The notes beneath the pieces were generated by a model that made no database searches, was not told the DNA's origin, and was given only the letters and a program-made list of their open reading frames with translations. A stretch of DNA of 9,116 nucleotides from a virus (lineage: Duplodnaviria > Heunggongvirae > Uroviricota > Caudoviricetes), in the IMG/VR virus record IMGVR_UViG_2698536397_000007, positions 1 through 9,116 of that record; one strand, given 5' to 3'. Both the position numbers and the translations under genes were made by a program. Below are positions 871 to 6,627 of the stretch, piece by piece (the first letter of the stretch is position 1; each line of letters begins with the position of its first letter).

Positions 871-1184
871 GTGGCTGGAAGAAGTGGCGCTGGGCGGAAA
901 TTATGATACTCCGGCAGTGTGCGGGAACGATGACAGTCGAAAGCATCGGCAGTCTGATTGGCCGTAGTGGGGCTGCCGTCAGGACGAAAGCGCGGGAACT
1001 GGGTATCTGCATGATGTTACGGGGTGATTATCACCAGTCAGCCAAATGTTCACAGCGTGATATTGAGCTGGCGCGGCAACTGCATCAGCGTGGCGTACCC
1101 CGACGGGAAATTGCCGAAAAGTTTGGGATGAAGTTGGGCGCAGTGAATAACTACGTTTATTTCGACAGGAGGGTTCAGGCGTGA
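867..1184 (+). CDS. Hypothetical small protein with two helix-turn-helix-like segments
   Basis: GTG 867 overlaps the upstream stop (GTGA); alternative in-frame ATG at 903. Segments [22 protein letters not shown] and [19 protein letters not shown] look HTH-like. Stop TGA 1182-1184 overlaps the next start. Start codon and function are uncertain. Confidence 0.5.
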
Positions 1185-1486
1185 GGGTGAGAATTTATAT
1201 CGCCGGTCCGATGACGGGATATGAAAATTTCAACCGTGAGGCGTTTCACAGGGCGGAAGAAGCACTGAAACGGGAAGGGCATACCGTTTTAAACCCGGCA
1301 GTACTTCCGGACGGACTGACACAGCCACACTACATGGATATTTGCATGGCGATGATACGCTGCGTGGATGCGATTTACATGCTGAAAGGCTGGCAGCGGT
1401 CGGCAGGCGCTAAGGCAGAACTGGCACTGGCGGAGAAACTGGGACATGCGGTTATTTTCCAGGAGGCAACCAGTGAGAAAAATTAA
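1181..1486 (+). CDS. DUF4406-like protein (nucleoside 2-deoxyribosyltransferase-like fold)
   Basis: GTG 1181 with AGGAGG at 1167-1172 (8-nt spacer); 101 aa; N-terminal IYIAGPMTG…NF…F…G…V.NP pattern typical of DUF4406/NDT-like proteins (recalled, not searched). Confidence 0.7.
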   Translation: MRVRIYIAGPMTGYENFNREAFHRAEEALKREGHTVLNPAVLPDGLTQPHYMDICMAMIRCVDAIYMLKGWQRSAGAKAELALAEKLGHAVIFQEATSEKN

Positions 1487-2036
1487 TTATCAGACGCTAC
1501 GTGAGATAGCAAAACTGGCAACCCAGGGCGAATGGGTCGCATTCATTTCGCCGGGCACTGATACATATGCGGTGCATACGCCGGGGGATGAACGTTGCGG
1601 AGACATTATCAAATGGCCTGGCTTTGATGACCAGAAAAATGCAGAGAACAACGCAGAATTTATTGCAGCTTTCAACCCTGAAGTAGTACAGGCACTGCTG
1701 GATGAACGGGAAGCCCAAAGCAAACGTATTGCAGAGCTGGAAGCTAATCTTGTGGCGCTGGCGGCGGAGAATGCACTTGCTCGTAAAGCAGTTCAGGCAT
1801 TCTGCGATGTTGTTGGCGACAACACCGAGGTTATCGCTGAGGAGGTTGGGCGAGATGGCGTTCTGGTTATCTTGGAGGCCATGAAAGCAACAGGAAATAT
1901 GCCTGCCACCGATGCTTTCCTGGCTGAAGTACGAGCGCAGGGCGTGGAGATGTTTGCGGAGTGTGCATACACACTTGAACATCATGATCACGCAGTAGCC
2001 TTCGCCGCTGAGCTTCGCAAAGGAGGCAACCAGTGA
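1473..2036 (+). CDS. Ead/Ea22-like prophage protein (paralog 1)
   Basis: GTG 1473 with AGGAGG at 1461-1466; the 17-nt start context aggaggcaaccagtgag is identical to that of the next gene (2021-2037). Conserved N-terminal Y-Q-LR…A-GEW and NAEFIAA-NP…LLDERE blocks are shared with the downstream paralog. The six-frame ATG at 1446 is a less likely start (no SD, 40-nt overlap). Confidence 0.7.
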   Translation: MRKINYQTLREIAKLATQGEWVAFISPGTDTYAVHTPGDERCGDIIKWPGFDDQKNAENNAEFIAAFNPEVVQALLDEREAQSKRIAELEANLVALAAENALARKAVQAFCDVVGDNTEVIAEEVGRDGVLVILEAMKATGNMPATDAFLAEVRAQGVEMFAECAYTLEHHDHAVAFAAELRKGGNQ

Positions 2037-2710
2037 GCAAGATTGACTATCAGGCATTGCGTGCTAAGGCAGAAAAAGCAACGTGTGGCGAGTGGTCGCT
2101 CGAATATGGAGAGGGACGATTTGATGGTGATGATGCGCTAATTCATCGTGAAGTTGCTGGATATATTCCCATTTGCAGAATTGAAGGAGCGCATCCTGAA
2201 AGCGGTTTCGATGAAGATTTCCAAATGGAACAGCAGGCCAATGCTGAATTCATCGCCGCAGCCAATCCAGCTACCGTGCTGGCGCTGCTGGATGAACGGG
2301 AAAGAAACCAGCAATACATCAAACGCCGCGACTAGGAGAACGAGGATATTGCGCTAACGGTAGGGAAGCTGCGTGTTGAGCTGGAAGCAGCAGAGAAGCG
2401 GATTGCTGAGCTGCAGGCGCGGGACGTTAAGCCAGTTGCATGGATGAGGAATGCTAACGTCACATCATTCATGTTGAGGTTCACAACCGATGAGAAATAT
2501 GCAGTTGAGCAATGGGGTGATGATGCAGTTGCCCTCTATCCACTCCCTGTAGCTTTCATCCCTGCATGCTTTACAGACGAAAGAAATCTCATGCATATCA
2601 ACGAGCGCGGGCGAGAAACGTCACTTATCTGGAGTAAGCAGAACTCAGACAGCGGCGACATTAAACTTTTTCGTATCGCCGCCGCAGCCGGTAAAGGAGA
2701 GGAATCATGA
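2033..2710 (+). pseudogene. Ead/Ea22-like paralog 2 interrupted by an in-frame TAG at 2333-2335
   Basis: GTG 2033 with the same SD as paralog 1. The frame runs 2033-2332, hits TAG at 2333-2335, then continues in the same frame with no further stop to TGA 2708-2710 (…YIKRRD*ENEDIALTVGKLRVELEAAEKRIAELQARDVKPVAW…). The downstream part has no SD of its own (first ATG at 2444). Confidence 0.55.
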
Positions 2711-3439: not shown

Positions 3440-3739
3440 TTATAAGAAATCGGTTTCATAACTTTGCCCACCATGATAGATACCGACAATAAAGACTTTT
3501 CTGCCATCAACGGCAAAAGCAATAATCGTTCTGTGGCGGAAATGAGTTACCCGCATCCCCTGGCGAATATCATCGCGTTTATTGCCCCGATGCGGGAATG
3601 TAGAAAACCCATCAAGATAATCAAGAAGCGCATTGGCATAATTGTCAGCAATGACGTTCCCTGCTTTCTCCGTTATATATCTGTGCAGGTTGATTATTTG
3701 TTGTTCGGCCTCAGGAGTAATGATGACTTCATATGTCAT
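3440..3739 (-). CDS. ParE/RelE-superfamily type II toxin
   Basis: 99 aa (MTYEVIITPEAEQQI…RVTHFRHRTIIAFAVDGRKVFIVGIYHGGQSYETDFL), a size and pattern typical of ParE-like toxins; start 5 nt after the stop of the upstream RHH antitoxin gene on the same strand. Confidence 0.8.
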   Translation of the reverse strand: MTYEVIITPEAEQQIINLHRYITEKAGNVIADNYANALLDYLDGFSTFPHRGNKRDDIRQGMRVTHFRHRTIIAFAVDGRKVFIVGIYHGGQSYETDFL

Positions 3740-3744
3740 GCAGA

Positions 3745-4002
3745 TTACTTCCCGGATCGAATCGCGGCGCGAACCTGTGAAATGGAGCGTCCGTTGTTTG
3801 GGTTTTCGCGGATAGAATCAAGAGAGGGGGCGGCTGAATGCGTTAACCACGCTTCGATTGCTTTATCGCGCTCATTCAGTGCGCGAAGCCCTTCACGAAT
3901 GACCTCGCTTTCTGAAGCATAGGCACCGGAAGCCACACGGGCGCGCACCATGTCAGCCATCTCGTTAGTTAATGTAATGCTGAATTGTTGGGTTGTACGC
4001 AT
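3745..4002 (-). CDS. ParD-like ribbon-helix-helix antitoxin
   Basis: Start taken at ATG 4002-4000 (MRTTQQFSITLTNEMADMVRARVASG…) because GTGAGG lies 6 nt upstream on the minus strand; 85 aa. The longer six-frame ORF starting at 4065 has no SD. Antitoxin-then-toxin order is canonical. Confidence 0.75.
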   Translation of the reverse strand: MRTTQQFSITLTNEMADMVRARVASGAYASESEVIREGLRALNERDKAIEAWLTHSAAPSLDSIRENPNNGRSISQVRAAIRSGK

Positions 4003-4021
4003 GGTAAACCTCACGGAGTAG

Positions 4022-4065
4022 GATAGAACACTATTCGATGATAGCACGCTGCCTGTTGACGACAA
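4022..4065 (-). promoter_or_regulatory. Putative toxin-antitoxin promoter and operator
   Basis: On the minus strand: -35-like TTGTCG (plus 4060-4065), 16-bp spacer, -10 TATCAT (plus 4038-4043). Near the predicted transcription start are two GATAG direct repeats (4022-4026, 4039-4043) and an ATAG-n4-CTAT inverted repeat (4024-4035). A plus-strand TTGACG (4054-4059) suggests a divergent promoter. Hexamer matching by eye only. Confidence 0.3.
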
Positions 4066-5476: not shown

Positions 5477-5842
5477 ATGACCGAGCGCATAGAATTTGTT
5501 TTGCCTTACCCGCCGACGGTGAACACTTACTGGCGACGCCGTGGCAGCACATATTTTATATCGGAGGAGGGAAAGCGCTATCGCCGGGCAGTGGCGCTTA
5601 TTGTTCGCCAGCAGCGGCTGAAATTAAGCCTGTCCGGACGGCTGGCAATAAAAATTATTGCAGAGCCACCGGATAAGCGTCGTCGTGACCTGGACAACAT
5701 TCTGAAAGCACCGCTGGATGCGCTGACGCATGCGGGAGTGCTCATTGATGACGAGCAGTTTGATGAAATCAATATTGTACGTGGTCAGCTTGTTCTTGGT
5801 GGTCGGCTGGGTGTGAAGATTTACAAAATTGAGAGTGAGTGA
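5477..5842 (+). CDS. rusA: RusA-family Holliday junction resolvase
   Basis: ATG 5477 immediately after the upstream TAA; 121 aa; LPYPPTVNTYW…DKRRRDLDNILKAPLDALTHAGVLIDDEQ matches the RusA signature with its conserved acidic residues. Confidence 0.9.
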   Translation: MTERIEFVLPYPPTVNTYWRRRGSTYFISEEGKRYRRAVALIVRQQRLKLSLSGRLAIKIIAEPPDKRRRDLDNILKAPLDALTHAGVLIDDEQFDEINIVRGQLVLGGRLGVKIYKIESE

Positions 5843-6411
5843 GCGTAAATATGATATATCCGGAAATTACAGGCAAAAGCGGCGAACATTTACGCCTGAA
5901 CACGCTGGAAGCAGTCTGGATCCAGGGGAAATTACGGATGTGGGGGCGGTGGTCGTATATCGGTGGGGGTAAATCCGGAAATATGTTTAACCGGTTACTG
6001 GTTTCGAAAAAGCTGACGAAAACAGCAGTTAATGAAGTTTTACGCAGAATGAAGAAATCTGGGCTGGATAAACCGGAACTTGAGGCATTTTTTCGGGATA
6101 TGACCAGAGGGAAGCAGAAGAGCTGGTTGTCACATTGTACAGACACAGAGGCGTTGATTATTGATCGCGTTATCAGTGAGGTGCTTGGGGAATATCCCGG
6201 GCTAATCAATATTCTCCGGCAAAGGTACGAAGGACGAGGAATGAGCAAACTGAAAATGGCCGAAAGGTTAAATGCAGATCATCCTGAGTGGACGTTGGTT
6301 ACGTGCAGACGCCGAATTGATCAGTGGTTGGGGATATCTGAATTTATGTTACATGCCCCCATGCGTATGGCTTTTGTTACAGAGAAAAAAATGTTGCAAA
6401 CTGATCAATAA
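5839..6411 (+). CDS. Putative late-gene antiterminator Q (phage 21/82 type, PF06530-like as recalled)
   Basis: GTG 5839 overlaps the rusA stop (GTGA); alternative ATG at 5851. 190 aa with an LE-VW…WGRW…G block reminiscent of Q21-type antiterminators. Position directly after DUF968/rusA and before a promoter-terminator unit fits Q. Identification is by synteny and weak motif recall. Confidence 0.55.
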   Translation: MSVNMIYPEITGKSGEHLRLNTLEAVWIQGKLRMWGRWSYIGGGKSGNMFNRLLVSKKLTKTAVNEVLRRMKKSGLDKPELEAFFRDMTRGKQKSWLSHCTDTEALIIDRVISEVLGEYPGLINILRQRYEGRGMSKLKMAERLNADHPEWTLVTCRRRIDQWLGISEFMLHAPMRMAFVTEKKMLQTDQ

Positions 6412-6422
6412 ACTGCTTCAAT
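6394..6422 (+). promoter_or_regulatory. Candidate late promoter (PR'-like)
   Basis: TTGCAA (6394-6399), 17-bp spacer, TTCAAT (6417-6422), straddling the Q stop codon. Followed by CGCAAG(G) direct repeats at 6435-6441, 6459-6464 and 6471-6479, and a terminator about 75 nt downstream. Weak hexamers. Confidence 0.25.
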
Positions 6423-6482
6423 CCGTATAAGCTTCGCAAGGCTGTATCGCGAGGCGAAACGCAAGTTTTTTCGCACAAGGAA

Positions 6483-6504
6483 GCCACCGGAAGGTGGTTT
6501 TTTT
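6483..6504 (+). terminator. Intrinsic terminator (tR'-like) downstream of Q
   Basis: Stem CCACC (6484-6488) / GGTGG (6493-6497), loop GGAA, followed by seven T (6498-6504). Confidence 0.5.
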
Positions 6505-6627
6505 GTGTCCGTAATATACAGCAGCGCAATAAATTCGCTGGTGGTTATTAATACCGTTCTTTCAGCTTGCTGGCTTTTTCGACAAGAGTTATTGGTGTGT
6601 CACGTTAACCGGAAAAGGGGAAAAGAC

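Follow-up and report, generated by a model that had tools for sequence, protein, structure and literature searches.

We find that a short gene in the early region of an E. coli lambdoid prophage, contained within the 9,116-nucleotide stretch of viral DNA analysed here (the window), encodes a typical member of the catalogued family DUF4406 within a known superfamily, and that its product is very probably a catalytic, N-glycosidic-bond-cleaving enzyme of the NDT/DNPH1 superfamily. Our preferred reading, to which we assign a probability of roughly 0.45, is that of a stand-alone 2'-deoxynucleoside-5'-monophosphate (dNMP) N-glycosidase, possibly also a deoxyribose-5-phosphate transferase like the phage enzyme DmtZ, that would edit nucleotide pools early in lytic growth. 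The family is already catalogued, and placing the gene within DUF4406 is a correct identification and no discovery; what is added here is a functional prediction at the level of individual residues, together with two departures from the canonical enzymes.

The gene and its expression signals

The interval assigned to the DUF4406 gene (Table 1) holds a single plus-strand ORF in the ORF listing of the window, which opens with GTG and encodes 101 amino acids. Its translation contains the IYIAGPMTG...NP string, on which the earlier note had based its reading of the N-terminus, and the segment LNPAVLPDGL. In the tetranucleotide GTGA (1181-1184) the GTG start overlaps the termination codon of the HTH gene that precedes it, and the 3' end is overlapped by the annotated start (1473) of the downstream Ead/Ea22-like gene, so that the ORF is part of a translationally coupled string. 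A second in-frame GTG at position 1187 corresponds to the start chosen by many homologues. Flanking sites that might act as a promoter or terminator of the gene's own nowhere rise above chance. Comparison of the window copy with 32 distinct prophage copies gives a median pairwise dN/dS of 0.09, which marks a real coding gene under purifying selection, and an identical protein from E. coli 2012EL-2448 is already present in RefSeq (WP_032298829.1, 'DUF4406 domain-containing protein').

Table 1. Positions in the window of the DUF4406 gene, its neighbours and the codons discussed in the text; secondary structure is given in residue numbers of the protein.
Feature	Position	Strand	Remarks
DUF4406 gene	1181..1486	+	GTG start, 101 codons plus stop; single-domain product
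Shine-Dalgarno AGGAGG	1167..1172	+	8 nt 5' of GTG; read from sequence
Upstream HTH 'DNA-binding protein' gene	903..1184	+	RefSeq annotation of 99.6%-identical locus L001; PHROG 323 transcriptional regulator
Downstream Ead/Ea22-like gene	1473..2036	+	RefSeq annotation of L001; Pfam Ead_Ea22 E 1e-26
Tyr6 codon	1196..1198	+	b1; aligned to triad tyrosine DNPH1 Y24 (hhalign)
Pro39 codon	1295..1297	+	kept in 263/266 homologues
Tyr51 codon	1331..1333	+	264/266 conserved; one helical turn N-terminal of Cys55
Cys55 codon	1343..1345	+	triad Asp/Asn position; helix before b3
S74-A-G76-A-K-A-E80 (S-x-G-x-x-x-E)	1400..1420	+	predicted 5'-phosphate-binding Ser and nucleophile Glu
Predicted secondary structure			b1 4-8, a1 19-31, b2 35-37, a2 48-59, b3 64-67, a3 75-87, b4 90-93

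Prophage setting and distribution

Over its initial 5.8 kb the window shares 99.6% identity with locus L001, a prophage that E. coli 2012EL-2448 carries next to tRNA-Ser/mtfA. The backbone around the DUF4406 gene is lambdoid and of the Stx type. In the related prophage, repressor/cro-like, YdaT, O-like, P, DUF1627 and HTH protein genes lead up to DUF4406, which is followed by two Ead/Ea22-like genes, DUF551, ParDE (on the opposite strand), DUF968, RusA and Q, and then by a methylase gene, tRNAs and stx2b. This puts the gene where the earlier note had it, in an early prophage operon. The O/P-like replication genes precede it and the Q antiterminator gene follows, which is the nin-like, delayed-early section of the rightward operon.

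Homologues are found far beyond this prophage. When 1.84 billion representatives were searched with a profile, 18,162 clusters (at 50% identity) were returned with E values up to 1e-3 and 6,607 at 1e-10. Among complete E. coli genomes the gene itself, at a nucleotide identity of at least 80%, is present in 1,181 of 5,426 (22%), in one to four copies per genome that are almost all chromosomal. Searches using tblastn recovered 329 phage records, including N15 gp57, PY54, Vibrio, Arthrobacter, Mycobacterium, Gordonia and Rhizobium phages, and roseophages, and DUF4406 homologues occur in phages of both Proteobacteria and Actinobacteria. Of 80 enterobacterial viral contigs, 23 have an HTH gene upstream and 35 a DUF977-like gene, and the downstream genes are many and different; in ten distant phages the homologue is always a stand-alone protein of 95-125 amino acids whose gene has small genes for early functions, replication or recombination around it. 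No gene neighbour is conserved in the 80 enterobacterial loci or in the ten diverse phages, and these varying surroundings mark the gene as a self-sufficient mosaic cassette with no obligate partner. The operons in which many unrelated phages carry the gene also encode replication and recombination functions, and this placement, combined with the purifying selection noted above, fits an enzyme of DNA metabolism.

Domain fusions gave no clue to function, since 52 long representatives have no informative Pfam partner save one DUF551, and some of the apparent fusions result from reading on into the Ea22 gene that follows. BoostSeason gp55 carries an N-terminal domain of unknown kind.

The neighbourhoods also bear on the idea that the protein acts on DNA or modified nucleotides tied to phage DNA methylation, for example by ridding the nucleotide pool of methylated dNMPs or by removing bases from DNA. 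N15 (gp57/gp58) and Brujita (gp55/gp56) each have a DNA methyltransferase gene adjoining the homologue, and in TaylorSipht such a gene is located a few genes away. In addition, the natural role of DNPH1 is the removal of a modified dNMP, hmdUMP (PMC10603095), and the shortened domain described below would leave the pocket more open. Methylases are common in these regions, however, the adjacency is not general, and a DNA-binding feature is absent from the protein; we consider this explanation very unlikely.

Family membership and predicted fold

The protein matches Pfam DUF4406 (PF14359) over profile positions 2-91 of 91 with an E value of 8.5e-37 (125.9 bits against a gathering cut-off of 22). 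All of the residues that are invariant in the family (G9, F22, S74, G76 and E80) or nearly so (P39, P43, Y51, M58 and A77) are present in the window protein, conservation having been scored on 266 homologues and on 92 diverse homologues. PHROG 355, which is named 'nucleoside 2-deoxyribosyltransferase', is matched at 7e-48. Pfam DUF1937 gives a sub-threshold cross-match (2e-4), and Pfam Nuc_deoxyrib_tr (PF05014) falls below its gathering threshold (9e-3, 16.6 bits versus 28.8). There is no match to the window protein in NCBIfam, nor in the PDB when this is searched directly with the single sequence.

An AlphaFold2 model computed from an alignment of 31 homologues is confident (pLDDT 88.6, pTM 0.82) and predicts four strands and three helices in a mini N-(deoxy)ribosyltransferase-like arrangement, a flavodoxin-like a/b fold that is common to NDT, DNPH1, MilB and PA1492 (clan CL0498). 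When this model is compared with known structures using Foldseek, the top match is T. brucei NDT (2.5e-5), after which come other NDTs, MilB, DNPH1 and BcmB. Moreover, a family profile built from the 92 diverse members (<62% identity) retrieves T. brucei NDT over its full length as the best sequence-level match in the PDB (E 0.0014), with L. mexicana NDT, BlsM, BcmB and MilB as the next matches (profile matches range from E 0.0014 to 0.5). These profile and structure searches agree with the DUF4406 and NDT-like identity that the earlier note had proposed.

The same comparisons can be used to weigh a role in counter-defence, in which the enzyme would destroy a nucleotide-derived immune signal or its precursor by Glu-only chemistry suiting a good leaving group. 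Candidate targets are the NAD+-derived ADPR signals of TIR/Thoeris-type systems and the dAMP/dIMP feeding dITP signalling. None of the families in PADLOC-DB, including the NDT-like retron effectors, matches the window protein at E values up to 1, and NDT, MilB and DNPH1 are nearer to it than TIR in both sequence and structure; TIR, ThsB and SLOG domains give no sequence-level signal, have no S-x-G-x-x-x-E motif, and rank below the NDT-type matches. Tyr6, moreover, points to a 2'-deoxy sugar, which is absent from NAD-derived signals. Lambdoid phages are not known to encode a nucleotide kinase. The Kongming paper gives phage nucleotide kinases as the trigger of that system and phage depletion of dAMP as a means of countering it, and retron NDT-like effectors deplete adenine derivatives, but DUF4406 is involved in neither case. 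A defence-related role for the gene, which the earlier note had raised, is possible but unsupported, and we regard the destruction of an immune signal as quite unlikely.

Active-site residues

Members of the superfamily have a Tyr/Asp(Asn)/Glu catalytic triad, which is Y24/D80/E104 in human DNPH1 (PMC10603095) and Y6/N77/E103 in phage DmtZ (PMC12884076). We aligned DNPH1 and L. leichmannii NDT (LlNDT) to the DUF4406 family profile with hhalign, the LlNDT query being an exact match to its PDB entry and the DNPH1 query being identical to its entry except for the engineered E55Q. Alignments against single characterised sequences have E values of about 0.05-0.1 and ~1% probability, and so are individually marginal and of negligible statistical weight, and the profile matches to characterised enzymes given above are weak as well; as the alignments are mutually consistent, the residue equivalences given below rest on that consistency together with the similarity in fold.

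Glu80, in the helix that follows b3, aligns with the nucleophiles DNPH1 E104 and LlNDT E98 and with the glutamate of TbPDT, BlsM and Wayne DmtZ, and it is conserved in 254 of 256 homologues and in 92 of the 92 diverse ones, so that the catalytic glutamate anticipated in the earlier note is indeed present. The residue at position 6 is Tyr in 238 and Phe in 18 of 257 homologues. Where Tyr and Phe have been compared at this triad site in characterised relatives, it is Tyr that accompanies a preference for 2'-deoxyribose (PMC10603095, PMC7308715); MilB, for example, has Phe here, and its F17Y variant switches preference to deoxyribose (PMC10603095).

Ser74, six residues before Glu80, is invariant among the 92 diverse members, as are Gly76 and Glu80, and aligns with DNPH1 S98 and with the serine of BlsM and of DmtZ. 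The 5'-phosphate is coordinated by S98 in DNPH1, the MilB equivalent being S97 (PMC10603095). At the same position LlNDT (D92) and TbPDT have Asp; in NDTs an Asp or Asn binds the 5'-OH from here, and in nucleotide-specific members its place is taken by small residues that are uncharged (PMC12884076, PMC7308715). Pro39 aligns with a proline of T. brucei NDT, L. mexicana NDT and Wayne DmtZ, and has no counterpart in DNPH1 or BlsM. According to the authors of the DmtZ study, all known transferases share a conserved proline (PMC12884076).

Several of these observations would be expected of a genuine nucleoside 2'-deoxyribosyltransferase, which would exchange bases between deoxynucleosides for salvage. 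PHROG 355 and many GenBank labels carry that name, the top sequence-level match in the PDB is the T. brucei purine transferase, Pro39 is aligned to the transferase-conserved proline, and a metagenomic phage NDT (PF05014) is reported to have dA-preferring transferase activity (bioRxiv 2025.10.22.683976). The Pfam NDT model, however, stays below threshold, and NDTs (L. leichmannii, T. brucei and L. mexicana PDT, C. thermalis) differ from the window protein in that the Asp at the 5'-OH site (LlNDT D92) is replaced here by an invariant Ser. Nothing corresponds to their second-subunit Asn (NLM motif), since the window protein is without the C-terminal region and, with it, the other C-terminal residues of NDTs. 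Nor do the labels help, given that the family is variously called deoxyribosyltransferase, dCMP deaminase, MazG or hydrolase in phage genomes, and the same ~115-125-aa protein also goes by the names dCMP deaminase and MazG. These labels are homology guesses, and 'dCMP deaminase' and 'MazG' are misnomers given to genes of a single domain. Our search of the literature found no biochemical or genetic work on any DUF4406 protein, the family name occurring in three of the papers searched and in the title or abstract of none. We think it unlikely that the protein is a salvage NDT.

The triad position between Tyr6 and Glu80 is occupied by Cys55, which four independent alignments agree in matching to DNPH1 D80, the Asp of BlsM, the Asn of TbPDT and the Asn of DmtZ. 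Across 266 homologues position 55 is Cys in 219, Asp in 20, Thr in 9 and Ala in 8 (the family as a whole having C/D/T/A/G), and in 40 of the 92 diverse members there is an acidic residue at neither 53 nor 55. Asp53, in the YMDIC segment, was considered as the triad aspartate and ruled out, since all four alignments place Cys55 there and Asp53 is only 70% conserved.

The window protein also stops 8 residues past b4, so that the C-terminal third of NDT or DNPH1 (about 40-60 residues) is missing. In those enzymes, which are obligate dimers, a C-terminal element reaches the active site of the partner subunit, where it supplies S128' in DNPH1 and the NLM-motif Asn in NDTs (PMC10603095, PMC7308715), and ending so soon after b4 leaves the window protein with no counterpart to this element. 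Judged from the aligned sequences, therefore, the protein departs from the canonical enzymes in two respects, having a cysteine at the acid position and no C-terminal element acting in trans.

The base is stacked by I29 and I76 in DNPH1 (PMC10603095), and hhalign aligns Met11 to I29; Met11 and Tyr51 probably take the roles of I29 and I76, respectively, the Tyr51-I76 equivalence being drawn from helix register. Thr12, which is the residue aligned with DNPH1 R30 (MilB R23), is Thr or Ser in 251 of 261 homologues, and the loop after it contains a conserved Asn18-Arg19 pair. The second phosphate ligand is S128' in DNPH1 and R23 in MilB (PMC10603095), and no equivalent of S128' is present in the window protein.

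An incomplete triad and the loss of the trans-acting C-terminal active-site elements could be read as signs of a non-catalytic nucleotide-binding protein, either a sponge or a regulator, that has kept the NDT pocket and lost the chemistry, and in size the protein does resemble known phage sponges. Nevertheless, neither the nucleophile Glu80 nor the S-x-G-x-x-x-E motif varies in this very large family, which is typical of catalysis, and TadIV-1, the one sponge with which we compared it, has an unrelated helical fold; the paper on sponges names six further families. Loss of activity of this kind is, in our view, very unlikely.

Comparison with known systems and proposed mechanism

Among characterised relatives, DNPH1/Rcl (2'-deoxynucleoside 5'-phosphate N-hydrolase 1) differs in having Asp80 where Cys55 is found here, in being longer at the C-terminus by about 50 residues, among them the helical extension from which the partner subunit receives S128', and in having no equivalent of Pro39; its sequence similarity to the window protein is statistically marginal. 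MilB, BcmB and BlsM are CMP and hydroxymethyl-CMP N-glycosidases of ~160 amino acids that act on ribonucleotides in antibiotic biosynthesis, and BlsM has the triad Asp in place of Cys55. PA1492/DUF1937 (PDB 1T1J) belongs to a separate Pfam family and is described as uncharacterised (PMC7308715), so that no function can be transferred from it to the window protein.

It is the phage-encoded NDT-superfamily enzyme DmtZ that comes closest in its combination of residues, with a tyrosine equivalent to Tyr6, a non-Asp triad residue (Asn), the Ser-x-Gly-x-x-x-Glu motif and the transferase-type proline. DmtZ has been demonstrated to hydrolyse dAMP and to transfer deoxyribose-5-phosphate to another base (PMC12884076), and this likeness leads us to favour a dNMP-directed, retaining N-glycosidase. 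DmtZ, which is known from the Z-genome phages Ghobes (Gordonia) and Wayne (Arthrobacter), is nonetheless a member of a different family: Wayne DmtZ-DutZ has no Pfam DUF4406 match, and aligning Wayne DmtZ to the DUF4406 profile with hhalign reaches E 0.066 across 67 columns. DmtZ is also larger, with ~145 aa and five strands; it is joined to a dUTPase-like dATPase or encoded next to one, and it goes together with 2-aminoadenine genomes, whereas lambdoid phages have none of this dATPase and 2-aminoadenine context. PurZ, DutZ and DpoZ are absent from the window, and no dNMP-producing partner was found adjoining the DUF4406 gene of lambdoid prophages in the 80 enterobacterial loci. Two structural relatives in BFVD (39% and 32% identity) are named for a dATP/dGTP diphosphohydrolase N-terminal domain, and this domain corresponds to PF18909/DUF5664, as confirmed on Wayne gp51. 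Because a dATP/dGTP diphosphohydrolase yields dNMPs, the pairing named in these relatives would parallel the DmtZ-DutZ fusion; no DUF5664 or Dut match is present in 265 close homologues.

The analysis establishes the gene, its expression context, its family and fold, and the conservation and alignment of Glu80, Ser74 and Tyr6; what substrate class the protein acts on, by what chemistry, in which oligomeric state and to what physiological end is our inference. On our preferred dNMP N-glycosidase reading the following scheme can be proposed. The pR-type operon would supply the protein at an early stage of the lytic cycle, and the protein would cleave the N-glycosidic bond of a 2'-deoxynucleoside 5'-monophosphate. 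Glu80 would attack C1' to form a covalent deoxyribosyl-5-phosphate-enzyme intermediate, as in a retaining mechanism, while Tyr6 would orient Glu80 and select 2'-deoxy sugars. The 5'-phosphate would be held by Ser74 and the backbone of Gly76, with the base sandwiched between Met11 and Tyr51. Water might then resolve the intermediate, making the enzyme a hydrolase, or another base might do so, giving a deoxyribose-5-phosphate transferase like phage DmtZ. Either way, the outcome would be a dNMP pool that is edited or sanitised during phage DNA replication.

What speaks most strongly against a simple enzyme of the DNPH1 type is that the canonical general acid, replaced by Cys55, and the C-terminal trans element are both missing. 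These two absences keep open substrates with better leaving groups, such as nicotinamide or N-alkylated purines, or larger substrates. At its most speculative, and with a likelihood that we consider low, DUF4406 might represent a large, unrecognised class of phage enzymes with a minimal NDT fold and Glu-only chemistry, needing neither a general acid nor a trans-subunit lid, each of which destroys or rebuilds one specific non-canonical or signalling (deoxy)nucleotide, and which temperate phages carry as a portable counter-defence or pool-sanitising cassette.

Implications for DUF4406 and temperate phages

DUF4406 is one of the larger uncharacterised families of phage proteins, and the residue pattern described here, consisting of the nucleophile Glu, the nucleotide-type Ser, the deoxy-type Tyr and the transferase-type Pro, with neither a conserved acid nor a C-terminal lid, yields a concrete and cheap prediction, namely that its members are dNMP-directed N-glycosidases or phosphodeoxyribosyl transferases. 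If this is true, thousands of annotations would be corrected, and the family would provide a natural minimal scaffold for a group of enzymes that serves to synthesise nucleoside analogues and, in DNPH1, includes a target of cancer therapy. Should the target instead be an immune signal or its precursor, the family would represent a new anti-defence mechanism, and, if the wider class acting on signalling or non-canonical nucleotides exists, roughly one E. coli genome in five would carry a cassette of this kind. Confirmation of the dNMP prediction would also reveal how temperate phages benefit when they edit nucleotide pools.

Start codon, homologues and labels of the DUF4406 gene

The true start of the DUF4406 gene could be the GTG at 1181 or a second in-frame GTG two codons 3' of it (1187-1189), the latter matching the start position of many DUF4406 homologues (MK/RIYIAGP...). 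The first of these is favoured on the sequence because of its Shine-Dalgarno spacing.

Single-domain homologues in Arthrobacter and Gordonia phage loci (L004, L005 and L088) are labelled 'deoxycytidylate deaminase' or 'MazG-like pyrophosphatase', and these labels look like annotation errors spread among actinophage genomes. Nine representative DUF4406 proteins, including P0146, P0153, P0165, P0170, P0172, P0194, P0200 and P0201, share a recurrent N-terminal extension (the N-terminal 80-210 aa) that has no match in Pfam. BoostSeason gp55 (L086 2045-2806; PHROG 15484, 'hydrolase') carries another, uncharacterised N-terminal domain of 150 aa.

Features of the window and single-domain DUF4406 homologues in other phages
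Feature	Location	Strand	Remarks
Ead/Ea22-like genes	1446-2335		two in tandem
Second Ead/Ea22-like gene	2033-2335		truncated
88-aa ORF	2444-2710		uncharacterised; after Ead/Ea22-like pair (region 2336-2710)
ParE/RelE-family toxin ORF	3440-3739	-	
ParD-type antitoxin ORF	3745-4065	-	shorter as annotated in the relative
Q-type antiterminator	5839-6411		DUF1133/Phage_antitermQ; 190 aa
DNA methyltransferase	6976-7437 and 7317-8015	+	two overlapping ORFs (region 6976-8015)
DUF4406 homologue, L004	2980-3354		single-domain
DUF4406 homologue, L005	3004-3372		single-domain
DUF4406 homologue, L088	3504-3848		single-domain

Comparison with the prophage of E. coli 2012EL-2448

The second Ead/Ea22-like gene has a counterpart in this prophage (L001) that is annotated as missing its C-terminus. 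The toxin and antitoxin ORFs, which are set between DUF551 and DUF968, are oriented opposite to the early operon. A mosaic junction lies shortly 5' of the rusA end (region 5825-6549), and the window antiterminator lacks any match at the nucleotide level in the prophage, which is nearly identical elsewhere and encodes a different antiterminator of 273 aa.

The methyltransferase gene is single and intact (1059 bp) in E. coli 2012EL-2448, where the corresponding region is 95% identical and the blastn alignment has 4 gap positions; the two overlapping ORFs of the window likely reflect a frameshift, either as a pseudogene or as a sequencing error. Relative to this closest genome, a block of three tRNA genes and stx2b A/B (L001 22321-23986) is missing at 8045-8353, and ARAGORN finds no tRNA genes in the whole window. 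The backbone resembles that of Stx phages, yet it appears to be stx-negative at this site.

In N15 (gp57-gp58, L002 3001-4309) and likewise in Brujita (gp55-gp56, L087 1854-2797), phages that are unrelated to each other, a gene for a DNA methyltransferase lies directly against the DUF4406 gene or overlaps with it. A functional link is possible.
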